Assembly (NCBI GenBank): GCA_964593805.1
Contig: CAZQHP010000001.1
Span: 645,283-709,282, forward strand
Source of the DNA: an uncultured Candidatus Saccharibacteria bacterium
GTDB taxonomy: Bacteria > Patescibacteriota > Saccharimonadia > Saccharimonadales > JBBQAJ01
DNA length: 64,000 bases
Reading direction: 5' to 3'
The translations under genes were made by a program, and so were the position numbers. Below the pieces are notes generated by a model. That model searched no databases. It saw only the letters and a list, made by a program, of their open reading frames with translations, and was not told the origin of the DNA. Positions 3,339 through 62,094 of the stretch are shown piece after piece (position 1 is the first letter of the stretch; each line of letters begins with the position of its first letter).

Positions 3339-3590
3339 CTATTTTTCCTGATTACCCTGAAGTGGTCTATTTAGTTTGGCCAGTGCTGATGCCAGTAGGG
3401 CGGCTTGTGCGTCGCGTCCCTCTAAAAAAGACACTAACTGACCCATTTTGGCGTCTCTGCGAGCAAAACCAATGGGGATGCCAATTGACCCGAATAGATC
3501 GGCTAAAGGGTCAGCCATGTCGGTAGATTCTTTGGGACTGGCTGGCCGTTCAAACTGAGATTTGGGCTCTATCATCAGGCTATTATACAA
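3339..3590 (-). CDS. hypothetical small protein (83 aa)
   Basis: ORF only; no recognisable motif. Confidence 0.4.
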   Translation of the reverse strand: MYNSLMIEPKSQFERPASPKESTDMADPLADLFGSIGIPIGFARRDAKMGQLVSFLEGRDAQAALLASALAKLNRPLQGNQEK

Positions 3591-3743: not shown

Positions 3744-3818
3744 GGTCTTATCGTCTAACGGTTAGGACACTAGGTTCTCATCCTAGAAATCCGGGTTCGA
3801 TTCCCGGTGAGATCACCA
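3744..3818 (+). tRNA. tRNA-Glu (anticodon CUC), CCA encoded
   Basis: Hand-folded 75-nt cloverleaf. Acceptor GGTCTTA/TGAGATC; D arm GTCT..GGAC; anticodon stem CTAGG/CCTAG with loop TTCTCAT; T arm CCGGG-TTCGATT-CCCGG; discriminator A plus CCA. Confidence 0.9.
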
Positions 3819-3968: not shown

Positions 3969-3989
3969 ATTCCCGGTGAGATCACCAAA
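3969..3989 (+). repeat. 21-nt direct repeat of the tRNA-Glu 3' end (att-like)
   Basis: ATTCCCGGTGAGATCACCAAA at 3800-3820 recurs exactly at 3969-3989. The second copy has no 5' tRNA half. Confidence 0.75.
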
Positions 3990-12909: not shown

Positions 12910-13080
12910 ATGGAAACAAAAACATACATTTGGATTGGCATAATCGTCGGCGGAATAGTCGGTGGCGCGCTAGGCGGGGCGTTAGACCACGGTAATGTTA
13001 TTGGCCTATGGGGAATACTAATGAGCGGTATTGGCTCCATAGCCGGCATATTCATAGCCTACAAACTCAGCAACTATTAA
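12910..13080 (+). CDS. small glycine-zipper membrane protein (56 aa; below the ORF-track threshold)
   Basis: Hand translation gives METKTYIWIGIIVGGIVGGALGGALDHGNVIGLWGILMSGIGSIAGIFIAYKLSNY. The ATG is 4 nt after the dprA stop, and a strong hairpin follows. Confidence 0.5.
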   Translation: METKTYIWIGIIVGGIVGGALGGALDHGNVIGLWGILMSGIGSIAGIFIAYKLSNY

Positions 13081-13139
13081 ATTCACAAAATCTCCCCCTG
13101 AAAAAGGACGGACCTTTTGCGGAGGGAGATTTTGTGAAT
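13081..13139. terminator. long perfect inverted repeat (16-bp stem with inner AAAAGG/CCTTTT stem)
   Basis: ATTCACAAAATCTCCC ... GGGAGATTTTGTGAAT lies immediately after the small membrane ORF. There is no clean U-tract. Confidence 0.45.
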
Positions 13140-13372
13140 TTGCAATTGGGAGTGTTTTGATTTAGTCTACCCATTTGCATATATAAGAATAAAGGTATAC
13201 TTAAGCGATATGGTAGGCACCCACACTATAAATATCTTTCGAGTGCGAGCCGCACAAGTGAGCAAACAAACAGAGGTACCAGGCGAACAAAGCGTATCTG
13301 TAGATACGTTGCGGAGCGGCATGCGTCTGTTTGTTGATCAGTTTGTGGCGCAGCAGAAAGGATGTTTGTAGC

Positions 13373-15664: not shown

Positions 15665-15767
15665 CCCTGGTTCCCTGGGTTTCGCACTTGAGTGCTGAGT
15701 GCCAAGAACGGCTTGCAAAGGTGGGCTTTGCCCAACTTCGCAAGCTGTGGTACGTAATCCAGGGTGT

Positions 15768-33197: not shown

Positions 33198-33572
33198 TTA
33201 CATGTCGCCGCAAGAAAGAATGTTGCCGTCAGGATCTTTGAACCAAACAGCTTTCATGGGTCCCATGGTATGAATATCGCCGTCGCGGGTAGTTTCGGGC
33301 AGGTCGTCATAGTGCTCAAACACTACGCCTTTGGCCTTGAGTTCAGCCACCACCGCCTCCACGTTGTCAACGGTCCAGCTAGCGTAGGTGGCCTGATTAG
33401 TACCTGCCACTTGCGATGGATAAACAAATAACTTGCCAGAACCGCTTTGGTAAGTTACACCCCAGGGCTGATCGTCAACTGCTTTCAGGCCGAGCTTACC
33501 GCCATAAAATTCTTTTGCTGCGTTTATGTCTTTGACCGCAACTGTTGGATAAATTGTTGCTTCTCCTAACAT
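33198..33572 (-). CDS. VOC/glyoxalase-family protein
   Basis: 124-aa paired beta-alpha-beta-beta-beta pattern; strong AGGAGG Shine-Dalgarno. Confidence 0.8.
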   Translation of the reverse strand: MLGEATIYPTVAVKDINAAKEFYGGKLGLKAVDDQPWGVTYQSGSGKLFVYPSQVAGTNQATYASWTVDNVEAVVAELKAKGVVFEHYDDLPETTRDGDIHTMGPMKAVWFKDPDGNILSCGDM

Positions 33573-33646
33573 ATCACCCCTCCTAATTTAAAAACTTACA
33601 TATACATTATACGCCCATAAATAATCCTTCAGTCCATGGTCTTAAG

Positions 33647-33798
33647 CCCCTTCTGAAAAACTGATTAGTATTGGCTGAGCGAAAACCTATGCGCGAGGAG
33701 TATTTACACCACAGCCAGTTTGAGCCAGACAATGCTAGTCAGGTTTTTTCAGCTGGGGTCGGTTCTTTTGCTTCTTTTCTGCCGACTCAGAAAAGAAG
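33647..33798. ncRNA. structured intergenic module resembling the 3' domain of elements A and B (copy C, weak)
   Basis: Long-range inverted repeat 33647-33668 / 33735-33758. GCGAGGAGT (33693), then GACAATG (33728), then CTTTTG plus hairpin CTTCTTTTCTG-ccgact-CAGAAAAGAAG (33771-33798), in the same order and similar spacing as in elements A and B. Confidence 0.3.
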
Positions 33799-33831
33799 TT
33801 TATAGAGCGAGCGAAGCGAGCGCAAAATGGT

Positions 33832-34254
33832 CTATTTTTTAAGAATCTGCTGCTTGCGAGCTTTGTTGGCCCACTCATCGGCCAGCTCATTCCCCGGGTC
33901 ATCATTGTGCCCGCGTACCCACACCAGCACCGCCTGGGATTTGCGGTACAGCGGGCAGACTTCTTGCACTATATCCAAATTCTTGATTGCCCCGCCCTTT
34001 TTCTTCCAGCCGTTAGCTTCCCACGCGACCGACCATTTGGTTATGACGTTTATCCAAAACTCGCTATCAGTAAATATTTCACACATCTCGCCGCCAGAGT
34101 CTTTTAGGGCGGCAATTATGGCCAGGCCTTCCATGCGAATGTTGGTGGTCTCATGTTCTCCGCCCAGTACACCCGGTTTCATATCTTTTATAACAGCAAA
34201 ACCACCCACCCCCGGGTTAGGTTCGCAACTGCCATCGGTATAATAAACAATCAC
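33832..34254 (-). CDS. rnhA: ribonuclease HI
   Basis: YTDGSCEPNPG, TNIRMEGLA, DSEF, HNDDPGNELAD. Confidence 0.88.
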   Translation of the reverse strand: MIVYYTDGSCEPNPGVGGFAVIKDMKPGVLGGEHETTNIRMEGLAIIAALKDSGGEMCEIFTDSEFWINVITKWSVAWEANGWKKKGGAIKNLDIVQEVCPLYRKSQAVLVWVRGHNDDPGNELADEWANKARKQQILKK

Positions 34255-43022: not shown

Positions 43023-44135
43023 CTATAAGTTTACCTTATTTACCGTCGCCCGCGCCGAACCGTCATGCATCTGAATAGAAACTTCCGACCCGGGCTTTAT
43101 AAACTTGATGGATTTTATGACTTTCCCGCCAGCCCGAAGCACCGCGTAACCCCGTCTTAGCGCCGCTTCTGGATTTAACGCCTCCAGCAAATCAGCCTGT
43201 CGGGCAACGGTTTGGGCGGCCGCCAAATAAGCCTGTTCCAAAAAGTGCCTGAGTGCTTTTTTGGTTTCTTTCAAATTCCGCGAGTCAACTTCTAGATTCT
43301 GCCGCACAATCTGTACCATAGATTTACCAACTTCACTCAGACGCTGTAACTCGTCTCTCTTATCGGGTACAAGCAATTGTGCGGCATTGCTGGGCGTGCT
43401 GGCTCGCAGGTCTGCCGCCAGTTCTGCCAGGCTTGTGTCTACTTCGTGCCCGATTGCCACCAGCGTTGGTATACGGCTGGCCGCAATAGCTCGTACGACC
43501 TGTTCGGCCCCGAACGCCGCCAAATCATCGGCGCTGCCGCCGCCGCGCGTTATTACCAGCACTTCTGGCGGCTGAGACAGCTGGTTTATGGCGTCTATGG
43601 CTCGTACAATGTCCGCCACAGCTGGTTCGCCCTGCACTTGCACATCATAATGCAGAACCTGCACGCCGCCCCAGCGTTCATTTAGTATTTTTACAAAGTC
43701 AGCGTAGGCCGCCGATTCTTTGGACGTGATCAGGCCAACCGATTGCGGTGCGAATGGCACAGGCCGCTTGCGGGATGATTCAAACAAACCTTCTTTTGTA
43801 AGCTTTGCCATCAGTAAATCTGCCGCCCGCTTCAAACTGCCCTTGCCCACCGGTGTAAGTGATTGCAAGTTCAAACTAAAGTTGTATAGGGGGTGCATGC
43901 GTGGACTGGCCACAATCCGCACCATCATGCCTTCTTCAATCGGTCCCGGCAGCATATACACGCTGCCAAAACACTTCACGCTGGCCGTTTCATCTTTTAT
44001 ATCAAAATACACCCATTTGCCGCGACTAACCCGCACATTTGCCAGTTCGCCCTCTATGGTTACCAGCGGATAGGCGAACTCTAGCGTCTGGTTCAGCACC
44101 GCCACAAAGTCAGAGGGAGTAAAAACAAGTTCCAT
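43023..44135 (-). CDS. xseA: exodeoxyribonuclease VII large subunit
   Basis: OB-fold start MELVFTPSDFVAVLNQTLE, catalytic core and coiled-coil C-terminus. I chose ATG 44135 rather than the track start 44294. Confidence 0.9.
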   Translation of the reverse strand: MELVFTPSDFVAVLNQTLEFAYPLVTIEGELANVRVSRGKWVYFDIKDETASVKCFGSVYMLPGPIEEGMMVRIVASPRMHPLYNFSLNLQSLTPVGKGSLKRAADLLMAKLTKEGLFESSRKRPVPFAPQSVGLITSKESAAYADFVKILNERWGGVQVLHYDVQVQGEPAVADIVRAIDAINQLSQPPEVLVITRGGGSADDLAAFGAEQVVRAIAASRIPTLVAIGHEVDTSLAELAADLRASTPSNAAQLLVPDKRDELQRLSEVGKSMVQIVRQNLEVDSRNLKETKKALRHFLEQAYLAAAQTVARQADLLEALNPEAALRRGYAVLRAGGKVIKSIKFIKPGSEVSIQMHDGSARATVNKVNL

Positions 44136-44189
44136 TGCAATAACTTTAACACCGAAAACAATGCGGCGCACGCCTGTGGCTTGCTTTCG

Positions 44190-44628
44190 CCCATACTTTC
44201 TTGTGTTGACAAGAAAGTAGGCAAAGAAACAACGCCATGGGCCGCGAAACATGATTGTCCCCATAACCAGCCAACTACCGCGCCGGGACGACAAGGCCCC
44301 CGACTTTAACTTGGGATGGTCGGGGACAAGTCCCAGCTCTATTCGGCAGTTGTCTGAAGGCGTGCATCAGTTTCTTGAATGGCGGGAACAAGCAGAGTCC
44401 CGCATATGCGGGGCGGTATTATATAATCCGCCTATGGCGGATACCTTGGTCTTGTCCGGGCTCTGGAGGTTCCTGATGATGGAGTTGTCAAAGCCACAAT
44501 TAGAGAGAGGAGTTACTGCGTAAGCAATAACGACGAGCATTGTGGTGTTTGACAATGGAGGCATCAAGAACTGGAAGTGGCTGTCGCTCTTTTTGCATAC
44601 TTTTTCTTCGATAAGAAAAAGTATGGCG
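44190..44628. ncRNA. repeated structured intergenic element, copy A (candidate novel ncRNA; strand unresolved)
   Basis: Collinear with 61252-61673. 63 of the last 64 nt are identical. It is bounded by A/U-rich hairpins at 44194-44219 and 44596-44625. Indels rule out coding. Confidence 0.5.
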
Positions 44629-44654
44629 TACAGCGGGCGAAGCGCGCGCGGAAA

Positions 44655-45725
44655 TTATTCTTCTATTTTTATAGATTCTTTGATTTCTTCGGCGGGCGTG
44701 TCGGCATGCAAGTTTTTTTGGTAGAAATAATAGCCTGGAGGCAGTTGCACGCTCATATTTACCACGCGGTACATAATAGTTACCGGCAAACTCAGCGCGG
44801 CCGGTACGCCGCCAGCGGCCAGCACGGCTGTCATCAGGCCTTCGTAGATGCCAATACCGCCGGGGAGTATGGAAATCAGCCCGGCAAAGTTGGCGACGGC
44901 ATAGGCCAATATAACCGCTCCGGGGTTTACTAAGTGCCCAAACCCCAAATAGACCACGTAAATAGCGCCCATTTCTGTTAGGTTTGCCACTAAAGCATAC
45001 AAAAGCGGCATCCTGAGCACGTGCAGGTTGCGGCGGATATGCATGTAGTTTTCGTGCAGTTCATGAAACGTATTGCGGGCGGTTTCTATGTTGAATGTCT
45101 CCGGATGGCCGCGGCGCACAACGTGAATTATCCGGTTCAAAATCTTAGTAATACTAGTAAAAAAACTATCTATGCGCCTTTTACTCCCAACCACAAACAC
45201 CAAAGCGGAGGTACCAATAAATAAAAGTGTTGCCAGCGAGCCAGCCACCAAAAGTATTAGGTCATTGGCCTGACCGCCCAGCGCCAAAGCCAGCAGCCCC
45301 ACAAACAACATCACCTGAAATGATATAAAAATCAGAATAAAGCGCATCAGCTGTACCAGCGTGGCTTGCGCCGTAGAAATCTTTTCGCTTTTCAGCCTTA
45401 GGCTCAAATATGAAAAACCGCTGACTCCGCCGCTTGGGAAAACACTGTTTACAAAGTTTAATTCCAAACTTAGCCGTACCATAGACCGGGTCCTAAAACG
45501 TTCGCCCAAAACCCTGAACAAACCTTGGTACAGCTTTCCCTGTGCCAGATGATTGAACAGTTCCAGCGGGATTACCAAAAGCACTGCAAACATGTTTACG
45601 TTGCCAAAGTTTTCCAACGTATCGCTTAACTGATGCCTAACCGCGTACGCCAAAAACCCCAGCGCTCCCAAAGTCAGGATAGTTAACGCTATTTTCCAGC
45701 GGCGCTGCCGCTCTTTATCGCTCAT
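44655..45725 (-). CDS. LPG-synthase-TM / UPF0104 flippase-like membrane protein
   Basis: Eight-TM pattern with ILPGGIGIYEGLMTAVL. Confidence 0.7.
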   Translation of the reverse strand: MSDKERQRRWKIALTILTLGALGFLAYAVRHQLSDTLENFGNVNMFAVLLVIPLELFNHLAQGKLYQGLFRVLGERFRTRSMVRLSLELNFVNSVFPSGGVSGFSYLSLRLKSEKISTAQATLVQLMRFILIFISFQVMLFVGLLALALGGQANDLILLVAGSLATLLFIGTSALVFVVGSKRRIDSFFTSITKILNRIIHVVRRGHPETFNIETARNTFHELHENYMHIRRNLHVLRMPLLYALVANLTEMGAIYVVYLGFGHLVNPGAVILAYAVANFAGLISILPGGIGIYEGLMTAVLAAGGVPAALSLPVTIMYRVVNMSVQLPPGYYFYQKNLHADTPAEEIKESIKIEE

Positions 45726-57265: not shown

Positions 57266-58555
57266 CTACTTAACCCATAAGGAACGTAGCGTATCGATCA
57301 GCTGCTCGCGGAGTTCTTTGTTGGCGGTACCCAAAAAACCGGCCCCCCAGCGTGGACGAGCAAAAAATTCATTGGTGATATCTACAATTTGCTCCTTGGT
57401 AATCGCTTTTATGCGCTCCGGAACCAGATAATAATCTTCTACGAAGTCGTCAAAGAAATAACGCCCGCTATACCCCGCCGCCGTACCCGAAACGGTTTGG
57501 CCGCTGCGCTGGTAGCGTCCGAGCAGGTATTGCTGGGCGGCGGCAATGTCCGTCTGCGTTATCTCTCCGTTGCAGACTGCACGAATTTCTTTGGCAATGA
57601 TGGCAAAGAGCGCGGGCGCGTTGATGGCGGTGACCTGCGTGCCAAACCACCAGTTGGTTGCGCATTTAGTCTGCAAATAATTGGAGCTCATACTATATAC
57701 AAGTCCCTTTTCACGGGCTTCACCCAAAATCCGCGAGTGTAGGGTTTCCGTCAGCATGGTATTTACTAATCCCAAGGCGTCGGCTTCGTCCTCATTTAGC
57801 CGCCGATCAATAAATGTATCCAGGTAAAAGTGCATGTTTTCTACCGTACGGTTGGCGATATACAGCGGCTCTTTGAGCCCTTTGGGCCGTTCGTTGGGCA
57901 GGGCAATTCGCGCCCTACCCTTTGGTAAAGACAACGTTTCCAGCAGTTCGGTGATTAGTAGTTGGCGAGCGGCTGTCAGCTTGCCGGCTATTACAAAGCG
58001 CATATTCTGGGTAAAATGCGTTTTGGCGTAGTGCTCGCGGATATCTTCTACTGTGACATTTTTCATCTGCTTTACGCGTTCTTGGTCAGTTAAAACTTTG
58101 TAGCCGTACTGCTGCCGGAGCGCCAGGCTCAGATGGCGGAAGTGGTTGTTGGATCGGCCGGTCATTTCTTCACGCACGTTGCCGTATTCAGCTTTGAATT
58201 CATCATCTAGAAACAGCGGCTTGCTGATAGCTACCAGCAACAATTTGGCAATTCGTTCCCACTCAAAATCAGCGCATTCGGCTTCATAGGTTATGTCGTA
58301 ACTGCCGGTGCTGGCGTTGCAGTAGGCGCCGTTTTTTTCAAACTCCGCCTGAAAAGCGCGGGCCCTAGGAATCTGTTCGTTGGCGCCAAGCAAAAGATGC
58401 TCCATCAGGTGGGCGGTTTCCCATTTGTCTGGCGGGCACAGAAAGTCTCCCGCCCGGAAATTGATTTCCAGGCTCATAACGCTGGCGCCAGGCACGTGGA
58501 CAAATAGCCCTTTGGCGCCGTTTTTTAATGTGATTTCACTAGCTGTGTGGCGCAT
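57266..58555 (-). CDS. M16-family (pitrilysin/insulinase-like) peptidase
   Basis: Inverted zinc motif HLMEH. The start overlaps the secA stop (TAATG). Confidence 0.85.
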   Translation of the reverse strand: MRHTASEITLKNGAKGLFVHVPGASVMSLEINFRAGDFLCPPDKWETAHLMEHLLLGANEQIPRARAFQAEFEKNGAYCNASTGSYDITYEAECADFEWERIAKLLLVAISKPLFLDDEFKAEYGNVREEMTGRSNNHFRHLSLALRQQYGYKVLTDQERVKQMKNVTVEDIREHYAKTHFTQNMRFVIAGKLTAARQLLITELLETLSLPKGRARIALPNERPKGLKEPLYIANRTVENMHFYLDTFIDRRLNEDEADALGLVNTMLTETLHSRILGEAREKGLVYSMSSNYLQTKCATNWWFGTQVTAINAPALFAIIAKEIRAVCNGEITQTDIAAAQQYLLGRYQRSGQTVSGTAAGYSGRYFFDDFVEDYYLVPERIKAITKEQIVDITNEFFARPRWGAGFLGTANKELREQLIDTLRSLWVK

Positions 58556-61155
58556 TATTTGCGTTTCTTGTGTTTGGCTTTGGCTTTTCGCTGGCGCTCT
58601 TGCTTGCGGGCCTTCTTTATCTTGTCTTTGTCGCGGCTTTTGGCCGCTGAAGCCACTTTTAGCGGTACGAAATCAGTTTCTTCAAACTCGTCGGCCTCCA
58701 CGATTTGATTGGCGTTGTCTATAGAACGACGAGCCGCTCTAGTAAGCTCTGTTTCTACTGGCCGATCGCTGTCTATAGGCTCAGCGCTAAATAGCGCCCG
58801 CACCACTTCGCGGCGTAGTTGGGCCTGCATTTCCTCAAACATGTGCTGTCCCTGGCGGCGATATTCCACCAGCGGATCGCGCTGGCCGACGCTAATCCAG
58901 TGAATTCCCTCGCGCATATGGTCCATGTTTTCCAAATGCTGCATCCATAAGTTATCCAAAATTTGCAAGTAAATGTCGCGCTCCACTTTGCGCATAACTT
59001 CCGGGGTAAAGGCAGTTTCGCGGCTTACATAAAGCTCCAACGCTTCGCTCTGTAGCAATTTGCCAAACTGGCTGGCTTCCGAATCAAATAGGCGGTCTAA
59101 CGTTGCGTCGTCAAACGGAAAACTTTCCGCTATCAGAGATTCGTACTGGTCAGATAACAGCATTGGTGAAGCTGCCAGGGTTTTGGCTTCATCCTCTATA
59201 AACGCCTTTATTCGTTTTTTGATATCGGCCTGCATCAGAATTTCGCGGCGCATGGCATAGGTTGCCTTGCGGTGGCGGTTCATCACGTCGTCATATTGAA
59301 CCACGTTTTTACGAGTATCAAAGTTGTAGCCTTCCACCTTTTTTTGAGCGCCTTCCAGGCTTTTGCTAATGACGCGGTTTTCAATCGGCGTTTCGTCGTC
59401 CACGCCCAGCCGGTCCATAATAGAACCAATGCGCTCGCCGCCAAAAATGCGCATCAGGTCGTCTTCTGTGCTCACGAAAAACTGCGTGACGCCGGGGTCG
59501 CCCTGGCGGCCAGACCGGCCGCGGAGCTGGTTATCAATGCGGCGGGACTCATGGCGTTCGCTTCCCAGTACAAACAGTCCGCCCAATTTTTTGACGTCTT
59601 CGTCCAGCACAATGTCCGTGCCGCGCCCGGCAATGTTGGTGGCTAGCGTCACCGCGCCCCTCTGCCCGGCTTTGGCCACAATAGCGGCTTCTCTTTCATT
59701 GTTTTTGGCATTCAACATCTGGTGCGGTACTTTGGCCTTTGTCAGCAAGCCGCTCAGAACTTCATTCTTTTCAATCGAAACCGTACCCAGCAAAACCGGC
59801 TGGCCCTTGCGGTGCAGCGCGGCGATTTCCCGCACTATGGCTTTGAACTTGCCGGCTTCGGTGCGGTATATACGGTCCGTTTTGTCGTCGCGGATCAGTT
59901 TGCGGTTAGACGGAACTTGTACTACGTCTAGCTTGTAGACCTGGTGGAATTCTTCGCTTTCGGTTTCAGCCGTACCGGTCATACCAGCCAGTTTGTCATA
60001 CAGGCGGAAATAGTTCTGGAAAGAAATAGTTGCCAGCGTCATGGACTCTTCCTGGACCTCTACGCCTTCTTTGGCCTCAATTGCCTGGTGCAAACCTTCG
60101 TTGTAGCGGCGGCCTTTGAGCAAGCGGCCCGTGAAATCATCCACAATCACAACCTCGCCGTCTGACGTTACGACGTAATCTTTATCACGGTGAAACAAGG
60201 CCTGGGCCTTTAGGGCCTGCTCTAAGTGATAAATTGTTCGGATGTTGTCCGTGCCGTACAAGCTGGTGATGCCCAGGATTTTTTCTACGTGTTCAACACC
60301 TCCGTTAGTGAGCACCACGGCTTTGCGTTTTTCGTCAGTTTCGTAATCTTCGTCTTTTTTAAGCTGGCGTGTGACTTTAGCAAACTGGGCGTAAGCGGTG
60401 CCGCTGGTAACACTTGGGGCGGAGATGATAAGTGGCGTGCGGGCTTCGTCTATCAATATAGAGTCTACTTCATCCACAATTGCATAGTGCAATTCGCGCT
60501 GGCGCAGCTGGTCAGTTTCGCGGACCATGTTGTCGCGCAGATAGTCAAAGCCAAATTCATTGTTTGTCCCGTACGTGATATCCGCGCCGTACGCTTCCTG
60601 GCGCGTGCAAGGTTTCAGGTGCCACAAGCGCGGATCGTCATGGCTTTTGTCTTCAAATTTCGGGTCATATATATAAGATTCTTCGGCGATGATAACGCCT
60701 GTGGTCAAACCCAAGAAACTATAGATTTGGCCCATCCAGCCAGCGTCGCGCCGCGCCAAATAATCGTTCACTGTCACTACGTGCACGCCCTTGCCCGTTA
60801 GTCCGTTCAAATAGACAGCCAGGGTTGCCACTAAAGTCTTGCCCTCGCCCGTTTTCATTTCGGCAACCTTGCCTTCGTGCAAAACCATGCCGCCAATCAG
60901 CTGGACATCAAAGTGCCGCTGGCCCAGCGTACGGCGGGCGGCTTCGCGCGCCACGGCAAATGCGTCGGGTAAAATTTTGTCCAAACTTTCTTTTTCTAAA
61001 CGCTCTTTCAGCTTAGCGGTCTGCTCTTTGAGCTGTTTGTCCGGCATTTTTTTATACTTTGGCTCCAACGCATTGACGTCATGAACTCGCCGCCGCATGC
61101 GCCGCAGGGTTTTAGCTTGCGGGTCACCTAGAACTTTCTTAAATACTTTATTCAC
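58555..61155 (-). CDS. secA: preprotein translocase ATPase SecA
   Basis: DEAD-like motor (MKTGEGKTL, DEVDS), PPXD, HSD/HWD, basic C-terminus. GTG start with GGGAG Shine-Dalgarno and TACAAT -10. Confidence 0.95.
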   Translation of the reverse strand: MNKVFKKVLGDPQAKTLRRMRRRVHDVNALEPKYKKMPDKQLKEQTAKLKERLEKESLDKILPDAFAVAREAARRTLGQRHFDVQLIGGMVLHEGKVAEMKTGEGKTLVATLAVYLNGLTGKGVHVVTVNDYLARRDAGWMGQIYSFLGLTTGVIIAEESYIYDPKFEDKSHDDPRLWHLKPCTRQEAYGADITYGTNNEFGFDYLRDNMVRETDQLRQRELHYAIVDEVDSILIDEARTPLIISAPSVTSGTAYAQFAKVTRQLKKDEDYETDEKRKAVVLTNGGVEHVEKILGITSLYGTDNIRTIYHLEQALKAQALFHRDKDYVVTSDGEVVIVDDFTGRLLKGRRYNEGLHQAIEAKEGVEVQEESMTLATISFQNYFRLYDKLAGMTGTAETESEEFHQVYKLDVVQVPSNRKLIRDDKTDRIYRTEAGKFKAIVREIAALHRKGQPVLLGTVSIEKNEVLSGLLTKAKVPHQMLNAKNNEREAAIVAKAGQRGAVTLATNIAGRGTDIVLDEDVKKLGGLFVLGSERHESRRIDNQLRGRSGRQGDPGVTQFFVSTEDDLMRIFGGERIGSIMDRLGVDDETPIENRVISKSLEGAQKKVEGYNFDTRKNVVQYDDVMNRHRKATYAMRREILMQADIKKRIKAFIEDEAKTLAASPMLLSDQYESLIAESFPFDDATLDRLFDSEASQFGKLLQSEALELYVSRETAFTPEVMRKVERDIYLQILDNLWMQHLENMDHMREGIHWISVGQRDPLVEYRRQGQHMFEEMQAQLRREVVRALFSAEPIDSDRPVETELTRAARRSIDNANQIVEADEFEETDFVPLKVASAAKSRDKDKIKKARKQERQRKAKAKHKKRK

Positions 61156-61251
61156 TAAAAGCTAACTCCCTCTGATACATGGTCAATCAACAATGCTAGA
61201 TATTGTACCCCATCAGAGGTGCTTCACGCCAGGTAATTTTCCCAACAACTG

Positions 61252-61673
61252 CTCCTTTCTTTTCTGGTCAGCAGAAAAGAAACAAAAGAACTGACGGATG
61301 ACATCAAAACACTATTGTCTCCAGAACCAGCACCTGCCCGCGCCGACAGAATAGCGCGTTCCAGTACTTCAGATTTCTCACCGTATGCTGTCGGCTCGAC
61401 TCGGTCAGGAACTGACTGGAGACATCGGTTTTGCTGAATCCGACCAACCGCCATGGTCTGAAGTATTTGTATACAAGTGCTGTGCACTTGACCGTGGAGG
61501 TTAGCCAGGCTCTGGAAGTTCCTGAGGAACGGAATGTCAAAACGACCTTTAGAGCGAGGAGTCCGCCGCGGCGGATGACGAGCATGGTCATTTTGACAAT
61601 GGAGTTCTTCAAGAACTGGAAGTGGCTGTCGCTCTTTTTGCATACTTTTTCTTCGACAAGAAAAAGTATGGCG
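61252..61673. ncRNA. repeated structured intergenic element, copy B (candidate novel ncRNA; strand unresolved)
   Basis: Collinear with 44190-44628. Hairpins at 61256-61282 and 61641-61670; closing helix AGAGCGA (61551) / TCGCTCT (61629). Confidence 0.5.
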
Positions 61674-61725
61674 GGAAATCCGCCATGGCGGATGCCGAAA
61701 CTGTTTTGAACAATAAAATGTCTGG

Positions 61726-62094
61726 TTATGCGTCGTGTTTGGTACGGCGCAGCTTGCTGATTAGGCGGTGACGCAACTGCGGGCTGCCATGTTTCATTTT
61801 GTATTTTTTGATCTGGTTTTTAAGCTTGGCTTCTACAATGTCGACCGCGGCGTACATGTTTATGGTTGCTTCCTTGGTTGTTAGTTTGTCGTGCGGCAAA
61901 TGCAGCACAACTTCACAAACGTTTTCTTTTTTGGCTTTAATTTTCACTTCTTTTAAGAAAACTTCCAGATGCGCTGACCGACGGGCGTGTTTAGGGATGT
62001 ATTTATCAAGTTTTCCGAGTTTTTTGGTTACATACGCCTTCAGTTTGCTGTCAACATCAAAATGAACTCCGTTAATCTCAAGCTTATTTATCAT
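61726..62094 (-). CDS. hpf: ribosome hibernation promoting factor (short HPF/RaiA type)
   Basis: S30AE fold pattern (VTKKLGKLDKY ... LEVFLKE ... DMYAAVD-like). Confidence 0.88.
   Translation of the reverse strand: MINKLEINGVHFDVDSKLKAYVTKKLGKLDKYIPKHARRSAHLEVFLKEVKIKAKKENVCEVVLHLPHDKLTTKEATINMYAAVDIVEAKLKNQIKKYKMKHGSPQLRHRLISKLRRTKHDA

Follow-up and report, generated by a model that had tools for sequence, protein, structure and literature searches.

A ~520-bp non-coding intergenic repeat of Saccharibacteria with inverted terminal units, best read as a new MITE/ERIC/BIME-type family whose folded core could encode an RNA

The stretch of DNA analysed here (the window) comprises 64,000 nt of one contig of an uncultured Candidatus Saccharibacteria bacterium. 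A preliminary description had singled out two similar intergenic regions within it, at 44190-44628 (copy A) and 61252-61673 (copy B), as a candidate structured RNA family. We find that these intergenic look-alikes are most likely copies of a small mobile element. On balance we favour assigning them to a family of ~520-bp non-coding, non-autonomous repeats of the miniature inverted-repeat transposable element (MITE), ERIC or BIME kind in Saccharibacteria, a family best read as new, and the conserved folded core of the element could encode an RNA. The proposal of a structured RNA family survives in part: the regions are structured and non-coding and match no Rfam family, but a plain two-copy RNA gene family fails in the face of inverted ends and truncated copies. 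We place the element among non-autonomous repeats and not among ordinary RNA genes because its terminal units are inverted, its copies are dispersed and in part truncated, and their orientation is independent of their neighbours. The same placement follows from the filled and empty orthologous sites, the lack of coding capacity and the presence of other, classical MITEs in the clade.

Evidence for terminal inverted repeats came from several comparisons. The inverted arrangement of the two ends is absent from the preliminary description. An nhmmer profile of the near end (in copies A and B, the end of higher coordinate) matched the far end of copy A on the opposite strand, at 44144-44226 (+), with E=2.6e-6. 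Local alignment of each near end with the far end of its own copy scored 50, 34 and 54 in the inverted orientation for copy A, copy B and L015, a full copy from a metagenome, against 35, 26 and 30 in the direct orientation. None of 500 shuffles reached these inverted scores. Eleven ends are known in all, and eight of them, from five copies, align as one unit of ~85-90 nt. The outer part of this unit is a GC-rich segment (..GCGAAGC.. then ..GAAAyTGT..), its middle is a perfect AT-rich hairpin of 11-13 bp, and its inner side bears the motif CAAAAAG(N2-4)CGAC, present at all ends and always inward of the hairpin. The hairpin stems vary between ends (CATAC../..GTATG, TTTC../..GAAA, CTTC../..GAAG, GTATC../..GATAC), with pairing always kept. 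A scan of the window and eight Saccharibacteria loci (~203 kb) for an AT-rich hairpin followed by CAAA[AG] returned element ends only, plus one weak chance site. The terminal inverted repeats by which MITEs are recognized are therefore present, as judged by alignment scores, aligned ends and motif scan. So is the arrangement by which REP and BIME sequences are recognized, namely inverted pairs of palindromic units, each with a conserved motif beside it.

Comparison of copies A and B bore out most of what had first been described. Between 44564-44628 and 61609-61673, 64 of 65 positions are identical, and the lone difference lies in the tetraloop (CGAT in A, CGAC in B) of a perfect AT-rich 13-bp hairpin, CATACTTTTTCTT-CGAY-AAGAAAAAGTATG, carried by both copies. 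The ~110 nt preceding this block on the + strand, originally judged about three quarters identical with 1-nt indels, align at 70-80% identity with such indels, and the remainder of the two copies is collinear at 35-65% identity. The blocks ATTGTCyCCAkAACCAGC and CGCGCCG and the second AT-rich hairpin reported at the far end were all located in both copies. Both copies are thus real, but the element runs further on both sides than first delimited, to its full ~520 bp, and comparison with L015 showed similarity continuing ~45-55 nt past the 13-bp hairpin. The count of two copies also proved too low: nhmmer detected a truncated third copy (C), which brings the window to three. The 64-nt block common to A and B is 95% kept in L015. 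Because the hairpin sequence differs in L038, another full copy, we attribute the near-identity of A and B partly to homogenisation within the genome.

The sample studied consists of four full copies (A, B, L015 and L038) and three partial copies. L015, from a Joint Genome Institute (JGI) metagenome, lies upstream of infC-rpmI in the orientation opposite to its neighbours. L038 carries a full copy at the hpf-secA site that copy B occupies in the window (E=1.1e-77), and L037 has a near end at the same site, where its contig stops. A half copy is found in the CHAP-ctpB spacer of L025, which measures 442 nt versus 109 nt in the window. Other relatives lack the element at these positions. The hpf-secA spacer of L020 is only 109 nt long and contains no element, and that of L019 holds an unrelated repeat instead. 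The LPG_synthase-xseA spacer, which harbours copy A in the window, is absent in L033, where the two genes overlap, and contains other MITEs in L029 and L032. Copies A and B share the orientation of the genes on either side; C, L015 and L025 are oriented oppositely to theirs.

Assemblies tend to stop within the element. Two independent short-read assemblies end inside the near terminal unit (L008/L036, Logan SRR8863434, at window position ~61646; L037, SRR22388172). The first of these, from the window's species, stops 73-87 nt into copy B, within the block shared with A. Such contig breaks are the usual behaviour of a repeat. Wider searches were also made. An exact-20-mer scan of metagenome contigs with the pattern GTGGCTGTCGCTCTTTTTGC recovered one true homologue (L015) and nine chance matches in coding sequence, and the corresponding scan of genome contigs with GAACTGGAAGTGGCTGTCGC gave only six chance matches, in unrelated phyla. 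Viral contigs scanned with different conserved motifs yielded one chance match only, copy B had no match in phage and plasmid collections by distant-mode BLAST, and the core, used as a covariance model on 224 kb, turned up no further copy.

The element had been described as non-coding and unlike any recognised RNA family, and both statements held. All six reading frames differ between A and B. A gene caller assigned copy B a 139-aa open reading frame (ORF), but a search of 5.8 billion proteins with it returned only itself, even at E<=10, and gene-caller output carried no Pfam match. A protein-coding gene on either strand was rejected on the grounds of the broken frames and the ORF without homologue. 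A scan of the whole window against Rfam at the gathering threshold returned one tRNA only, and copies A and B searched at E<=10 hit microRNA models alone (15-18 bits, E>1), which amounts to no family match even at this threshold, with RNase P, tmRNA, 6S, SRP, riboswitches, raiA, OLE, ROOL and GOLLD among the families covered. No sigma-70-like promoter was found for the element. The only terminator-like site at a terminal unit is a GC hairpin overlapping the outer unit of copy B, and two terminator-like sites near copy A fall outside its terminal units. The AT-rich hairpins were rejected as intrinsic terminators because they lack a U-tract. A template/variable repeat pair of a diversity-generating retroelement was rejected as well because the differences are not adenine-specific.

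Copies A and B fold far better than dinucleotide shuffles on both strands (z -4.5 to -8.4), and the near half adopts the same fold in all four full copies, in the order hairpin P1, conserved linker CAAAAAGAGCGACAGCCACUUCC, helix Pa, helix Pb and terminal hairpin. Helix Pa (AGUUCUUGA/UCAGGAACU) is invariant in the four. It continues in an extension whose sequence is UG/CA in A, GAAC/GUUC in both B and L015, and GGCG/CGCC in L038. The inner part of helix Pb (UUGUCAAA../..UUUGACA) is CCACAAU/AUUGUGG in both A and L038; copy B has GACC/GGUC there, and L015 has CCACC/GGUAG with a single mismatch. The terminal hairpin of the core is built from three unrelated sequences across the four copies, in line with the earlier observation that the hairpin after GAGGAG differs entirely in sequence between A and B. 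In the alignment of the four sequences, 93% of cells are paired, compared with 38-52% after sliding of the partners. Two-sided changes affect 5 pairs versus 2.4 in shuffles (14 of 500 shuffles reach 5) and the covariation score is 0.146 versus 0.094 (reached in 4 of 500), both values being drawn from four sequences and uncorrected for relatedness. A further small covarying hairpin was seen on direct reading, CAAGTGC/GCACTTG in B versus CAAATGC/GCATTTG in L038. The initial view that structure is kept while sequence drifts is thus upheld, helices being retained by compensatory change in the four full copies. One proposed helix did not stand: AGAGmGA/TCGCTCT, thought to close the 3' domain in both copies, pairs perfectly in B alone, carries one mismatch in A and two in L015, and shows uncompensated two-sided changes in L038; it was therefore rejected as a closing helix.

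Evidence on the strand is contradictory. Read as the window + strand, the core folds 3-11 kcal/mol better in all four full copies. For the half copies the other strand is the more stable, by 12 kcal/mol in C and 20 kcal/mol in L025, and G-U versus C-A substitutions point to both strands.

Conservation was assessed at the hpf-secA site, by comparing the window with L038, whose SerRS protein is 75% identical. In serS, hpf and secA, identity between the two is 45-55% at third codon positions and 81-96% at first and second positions. The element itself reaches 75-76% identity in its far half and ends, 88% in the P1 hairpin and linker, and 89% in the core. Identity of the element above that of third positions implies either purifying selection or recent spread between lineages. 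Because these bacteria carry competence genes (e.g., dprA in the window), the element could conceivably be replaced through homologous recombination in its conserved flanks.

Several observations weigh against a non-autonomous repeat of the MITE/ERIC/BIME kind. The two ends are unequally conserved, one end and the adjacent core being much better kept. The hpf-secA element is far better conserved than the third codon positions of its flanking genes, and the compensatory changes in its internal helices exceed the neutral decay expected of a dead MITE. As to mobility, a 4-bp TTGT duplication fits copy B (compared with L019) under one boundary choice only, and no matching target-site duplication was found for A, L015 or L038; the ends of the element are fuzzy. 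No transposase domain lies within the window, and we found no autonomous element whose ends match. Genes called in the other loci analysed include no transposase domain either, except in an unrelated Y1 gene of L038 (2666-3322, - strand). This gene encodes a 218-aa REP-associated-type Y1/HUH transposase (PF01797, HFHLQ motif; NF047646 at 35 bits, below the curated cut-off). It is flanked on both sides, at 2630-2652 and 3351-3373, by CTGACAAGGATnATCCnTGTCAG hairpins that differ from those of the element and occur nowhere else in the window or in 11 loci. We thus found no RAYT gene flanked by the element's own palindromic units, and because the hairpins around the L038 gene are unrelated to these units, the RAYT link is only a lead. 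The preliminary description had named terminal repeats and clear target-site duplications as the signs of an ordinary MITE; the former were found and the latter were not, and the label 'ordinary MITE' is not proven for this element.

Of the competing explanations, the one that survives best is a genuine structured non-coding RNA (ncRNA) gene family, in which the ~170-230 nt core (P1, the CAAAAAGAGCGACAGCCACUUCC linker and Pa/Pb) would be functional, the inverted ends incidental, and the core duplicated or carried to several loci. We regard it as unlikely. The four full copies share one architecture while differing in sequence in the Pa extension, the inner part of Pb and the terminal hairpin, and the pairing, covariation and folding values given above, together with a core so much better conserved than third codon positions, speak for such a gene family. 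However, the covariation rests on only four sequences with a shuffle control uncorrected for relatedness, and no promoter or terminator was found that defines a transcript. Orientation relative to neighbours varies, and sites are filled or empty among relatives. Copy C and L025 are without the core yet keep the terminal unit. The core favours the + strand in 4/4 copies, whereas the far halves of C and L025 favour the other, and the G-U/C-A counts are mixed.

The compensatory maintenance of the hairpins and the conservation above neutral level leave room for a function of the folded single-stranded form, as an RNA or as a DNA transposition intermediate, to which we assign a minority chance. A narrower version, which we hold to be unlikely, is that the near half (P1, the 23-nt single-stranded linker and Pa/Pb; ~200 nt) constitutes a functional RNA or single-stranded DNA module on a mobile element of an ultra-small genome. 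Such a module might be a transposon-borne guide or regulatory RNA with a protein partner encoded elsewhere, or a cis-acting transposition scaffold of a new kind. It would explain the 89% identity of the core at a site where third codon positions have fallen to ~45-55%, and the compensatory repair of every helix.

An ORF-less derivative of a guide-RNA transposon of the IS200/IS605 type (TnpB/IscB), with the near half as an omega-RNA-like scaffold acting in trans, is less probable again, and we consider it distinctly unlikely. The hairpins at the ends, the conserved structured domain of ~200 nt that abuts one of them, the existence of several copies and the REP-associated-type Y1 (HUH) transposase in the element-bearing L038 would all suit it. 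But the ends are similar in the inverted and not the direct orientation, and the copies match neither HEARO, the IS605-orfB motifs nor any other Rfam family at E<=10. Neither tnpB nor iscB was seen in the window or among genes called in the other loci analysed, the Y1 gene of L038 has the unrelated CTGACAAGGATnATCCnTGTCAG hairpins at its sides, and no shared target or target-adjacent (TAM-like) motif was found beside the ends.

Two further alternatives are very improbable. The first is a small protein of ~45-60 aa on the window + strand (..KNWKWLSLFLHTFSS.RKSM..), such as a peptide resembling type I toxins whose mRNA is structured. A, B and L015 all keep this frame open, with two mutually compensating indels in A, and GAGGAG lies upstream. 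Nevertheless, the copies share no start codon, GAGGAG lies at a distance of 13-35 nt and is sequestered by a hairpin, and the ORF leaves the conserved region into unrelated flank, with C-termini and lengths that differ between copies. A perfect 13-bp hairpin sits inside the supposed coding part, no hydrophobic stretch of transmembrane length is present, and on direct reading only 2 of the 5 differences between B and L015 are synonymous. The second, a simple recent segmental duplication or gene conversion of one intergenic spacer, would account for 64 of 65 identical nt amid ~55-75% identical sequence, a pattern that suggests local homogenisation, but it is largely refuted by homologues at other loci and in other species (L015, L025, L038 and L037), with the block 95% conserved in L015 and the flanks unrelated.

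If the element is a non-autonomous repeat of the MITE/ERIC/BIME kind, its terminal units would act as cis sites for a trans-acting enzyme, or for homologous recombination after DNA uptake. Either process might insert, delete and homogenise copies in short spacers after stop codons. The hairpins may be maintained since the element acts, or is handled, in a folded single-stranded form, and copies A and B are probably carried on read-through transcripts of the upstream gene. The parts of each copy are listed in the table.

Table. Coordinates of the three element copies in the window and of their parts; full-length extents are approximate.
Feature	Position	Strand	Evidence and components
Copy A, full-length element (~520 bp)	44146-44665		nhmmer match 44150-44679, E=1.4e-139; alignments
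Copy A, near terminal unit	44575-44665	-	outer GC-rich GCGGGCGAAGCGCGCGCGGAAATTATTC (on +), hairpin 44596-44625, inner CAAAAAGAGCGAC
Copy A, core hairpin domain	44479-44572		Pa AGUUCUUGAUG/CAUCAGGAAC; Pb UUGUCAAA+CCACAAU/AUUGUGG+UUUGACA; terminal hairpin GTTACTGC/GCAATAAC
Copy A, far half, chain of long, poorly conserved hairpins	44236-44478		folding, alignments
Copy A, far terminal unit, inverted near unit	44146-44235	+	hairpin 44192-44221 (CATACTTTCTTGT/ACAAGAAAGTAGG) then CAAAGAAACAAC
Copy B, full-length element	61213-61720		far boundary between 61213 and 61249; alignments, nhmmer
Copy B, near terminal unit	61609-61720	-	outer part with hairpin ATCCGCC/GGCGGAT; AT-rich hairpin 61641-61670; inner CAAAAAGAGCGAC
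Copy B, core hairpin domain	61517-61617		Pa AGUUCUUGA.GAAC/GUUC.UCAGGAACU; Pb UUGUCAAAAUGACC/GGUCGUUUUGACA; terminal hairpin TCCGCC/GGCGGA
Copy B, far terminal unit	61213-61300	+	hairpin 61256-61282 (TTTCTTTTCTGG/GCAGAAAAGAAA) then CAAAAGAACTGAC
Copy C, far half and one terminal unit	33615-33846	+	nhmmer E=1.5e-3; hairpin 33771-33798 (CTTCTTTTCTGA/GCAGAAAAGAAG)

The genome from which the window derives is tightly packed. Most spacers are shorter than 130 nt, and no spacer of the window is larger than the two that carry A and B. The neighbours of copy A are an LPG_synthase-like gene (44655-45725, -) and xseA (43023-44135, -), and its near end overlaps the stop codon of the former, which is upstream of it. 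This neighbour had been taken for a flippase-like gene; judged by synteny, it is instead a homologue of PF03706 (LPG_synthase_TM). Copy B lies between hpf (61726-62094, -) and the promoter and gene of secA (58555-61155, -), with the conserved secA promoter region (..GGGGTACAATAT..) retained downstream of the element. A heliorhodopsin gene (PF18761), conserved in relatives, is located near the hpf locus (L007/L035), ~1.4-2.3 kb beyond the right end of the window. Copy C, inverted relative to A and B, is placed between a glyoxalase-family gene (33198-33572, -) and an RNase H gene (33832-34254, -).

Other repeats were encountered at the same sites and elsewhere. A second, unrelated intergenic repeat family, containing GGCACCaGCACATTTTT...AAAATGCAC..GCAC, occupies the hpf-secA spacer of L019 (10372-10600) and the GreA-LysRS spacer of L035 (4735-4985). 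The L035 copy belongs to the same genome as the window and lies ~4.4 kb beyond its right end, and a 61-nt piece of this family (87% identity) is present in the window itself, in the spacer between topA and a sigma factor gene (15692-15750). A classical MITE of ~165 bp with near-perfect terminal inverted repeats (TIRs) of 23-24 bp (TATAGCCCCCGCAAAACAAATTC) was found in L029 (4965-5135, 6429-6595 and 14303-14349) and L032 (6476-6642 and 14243-14289). One of its copies in L029 is missing at the otherwise 97%-identical site of L032, apparently with a TA/TATA duplication. Another MITE-like element of ~165 bp, with TIRs TATAGGACTTTCGCACTTTCTTACC, sits at L029 4800-4965 and L032 5012-5177, in the LPG_synthase-xseA spacer that holds copy A in the window.

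Two more features of the window may be recorded. The gene for tRNA-Glu(CUC) at 3744-3818 has a 20-nt exact duplicate of its 3' end (ATTCCCGGTGAGATCACCAA) at 3969-3989, 169 nt downstream, which looks like a scar of integration or excision. A 29-nt inverted repeat (90% complementary, 5-nt loop) is present at 13079-13141 in the dprA-topA spacer, which is unusually long at 425 nt.

Saccharibacteria are members of the candidate phyla radiation (CPR), and homologues of the window's hpf and GlyRS carry the names Saccharibacteria, Saccharimonadales or Paceibacterota. The genomes of Saccharibacteria and other CPR members are tiny and packed, and spacers of 500 non-coding bp stand out in them. Together with at least three other repeat families, the element described here indicates that such genomes carry and exchange non-autonomous repeats. 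Assembly and annotation are both affected, because contigs break in the element and because gene callers report repeats as hypothetical proteins, the 139-aa ORF being one example. A further question thereby raised is what enzyme moves DNA in these episymbionts. Should the core encode an RNA, it would be a new structured RNA associated with a mobile element, from a poorly studied phylum. A search of the full-text papers available, on MITEs and ncRNAs of Saccharibacteria or CPR, returned nothing relevant and no paper on MITE-like repeats in them.

Among known systems, the HEARO/IscB omega-RNAs and the ORF-less IS200/IS605 elements (PATEs) resemble the element in being mobile, often ORF-less and multi-copy, with a big conserved structured RNA at one end. 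It departs from them in having no Rfam match, ends that are inverted and not direct, and no associated nuclease gene in view. REP, BIME and REPIN sequences with their RAYTs share with it a short palindromic unit with a conserved adjacent motif, inverted pairs and mosaic combinations, and a RAYT-like gene does occur in one element-bearing relative (L038). Its inverted units, however, are ~400 nt apart and not tens of nt, the only RAYT-like gene seen has unrelated flanking hairpins, and a high copy number like that of REP sequences is not established.

Bacterial MITEs include Correia/NEMIS, RUP and Nezha. Like them, the element is non-coding, shorter than 600 bp and bounded by terminal inverted repeats; its intergenic copies are dispersed, lie in both orientations and are in part truncated, relatives have filled as well as empty sites, and strong structure is predicted. 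Unlike in MITEs, its terminal repeats are unusually long (~85-90 nt), match at only ~65-70% and each include a perfect hairpin, and neither a target-site duplication nor a parent insertion sequence (IS) was found for it. ERIC/IRU elements of enterobacteria are ~127 bp long and form a single long stem, whereas the Saccharibacteria element is ~4 times longer and modular, belongs to an unrelated phylum and has no sequence similarity to them. For ERIC/IRU, too, no transposase or duplication is known. ERIC elements show unusual conservation, occur in some species and not in others, and have come under suspicion of selection at the RNA level. The element described here shares with ERIC/IRU the form of imperfect palindromic intergenic repeats in either orientation, occupied and empty orthologous sites, and a conservation between species that exceeds that of neighbouring neutral sites.

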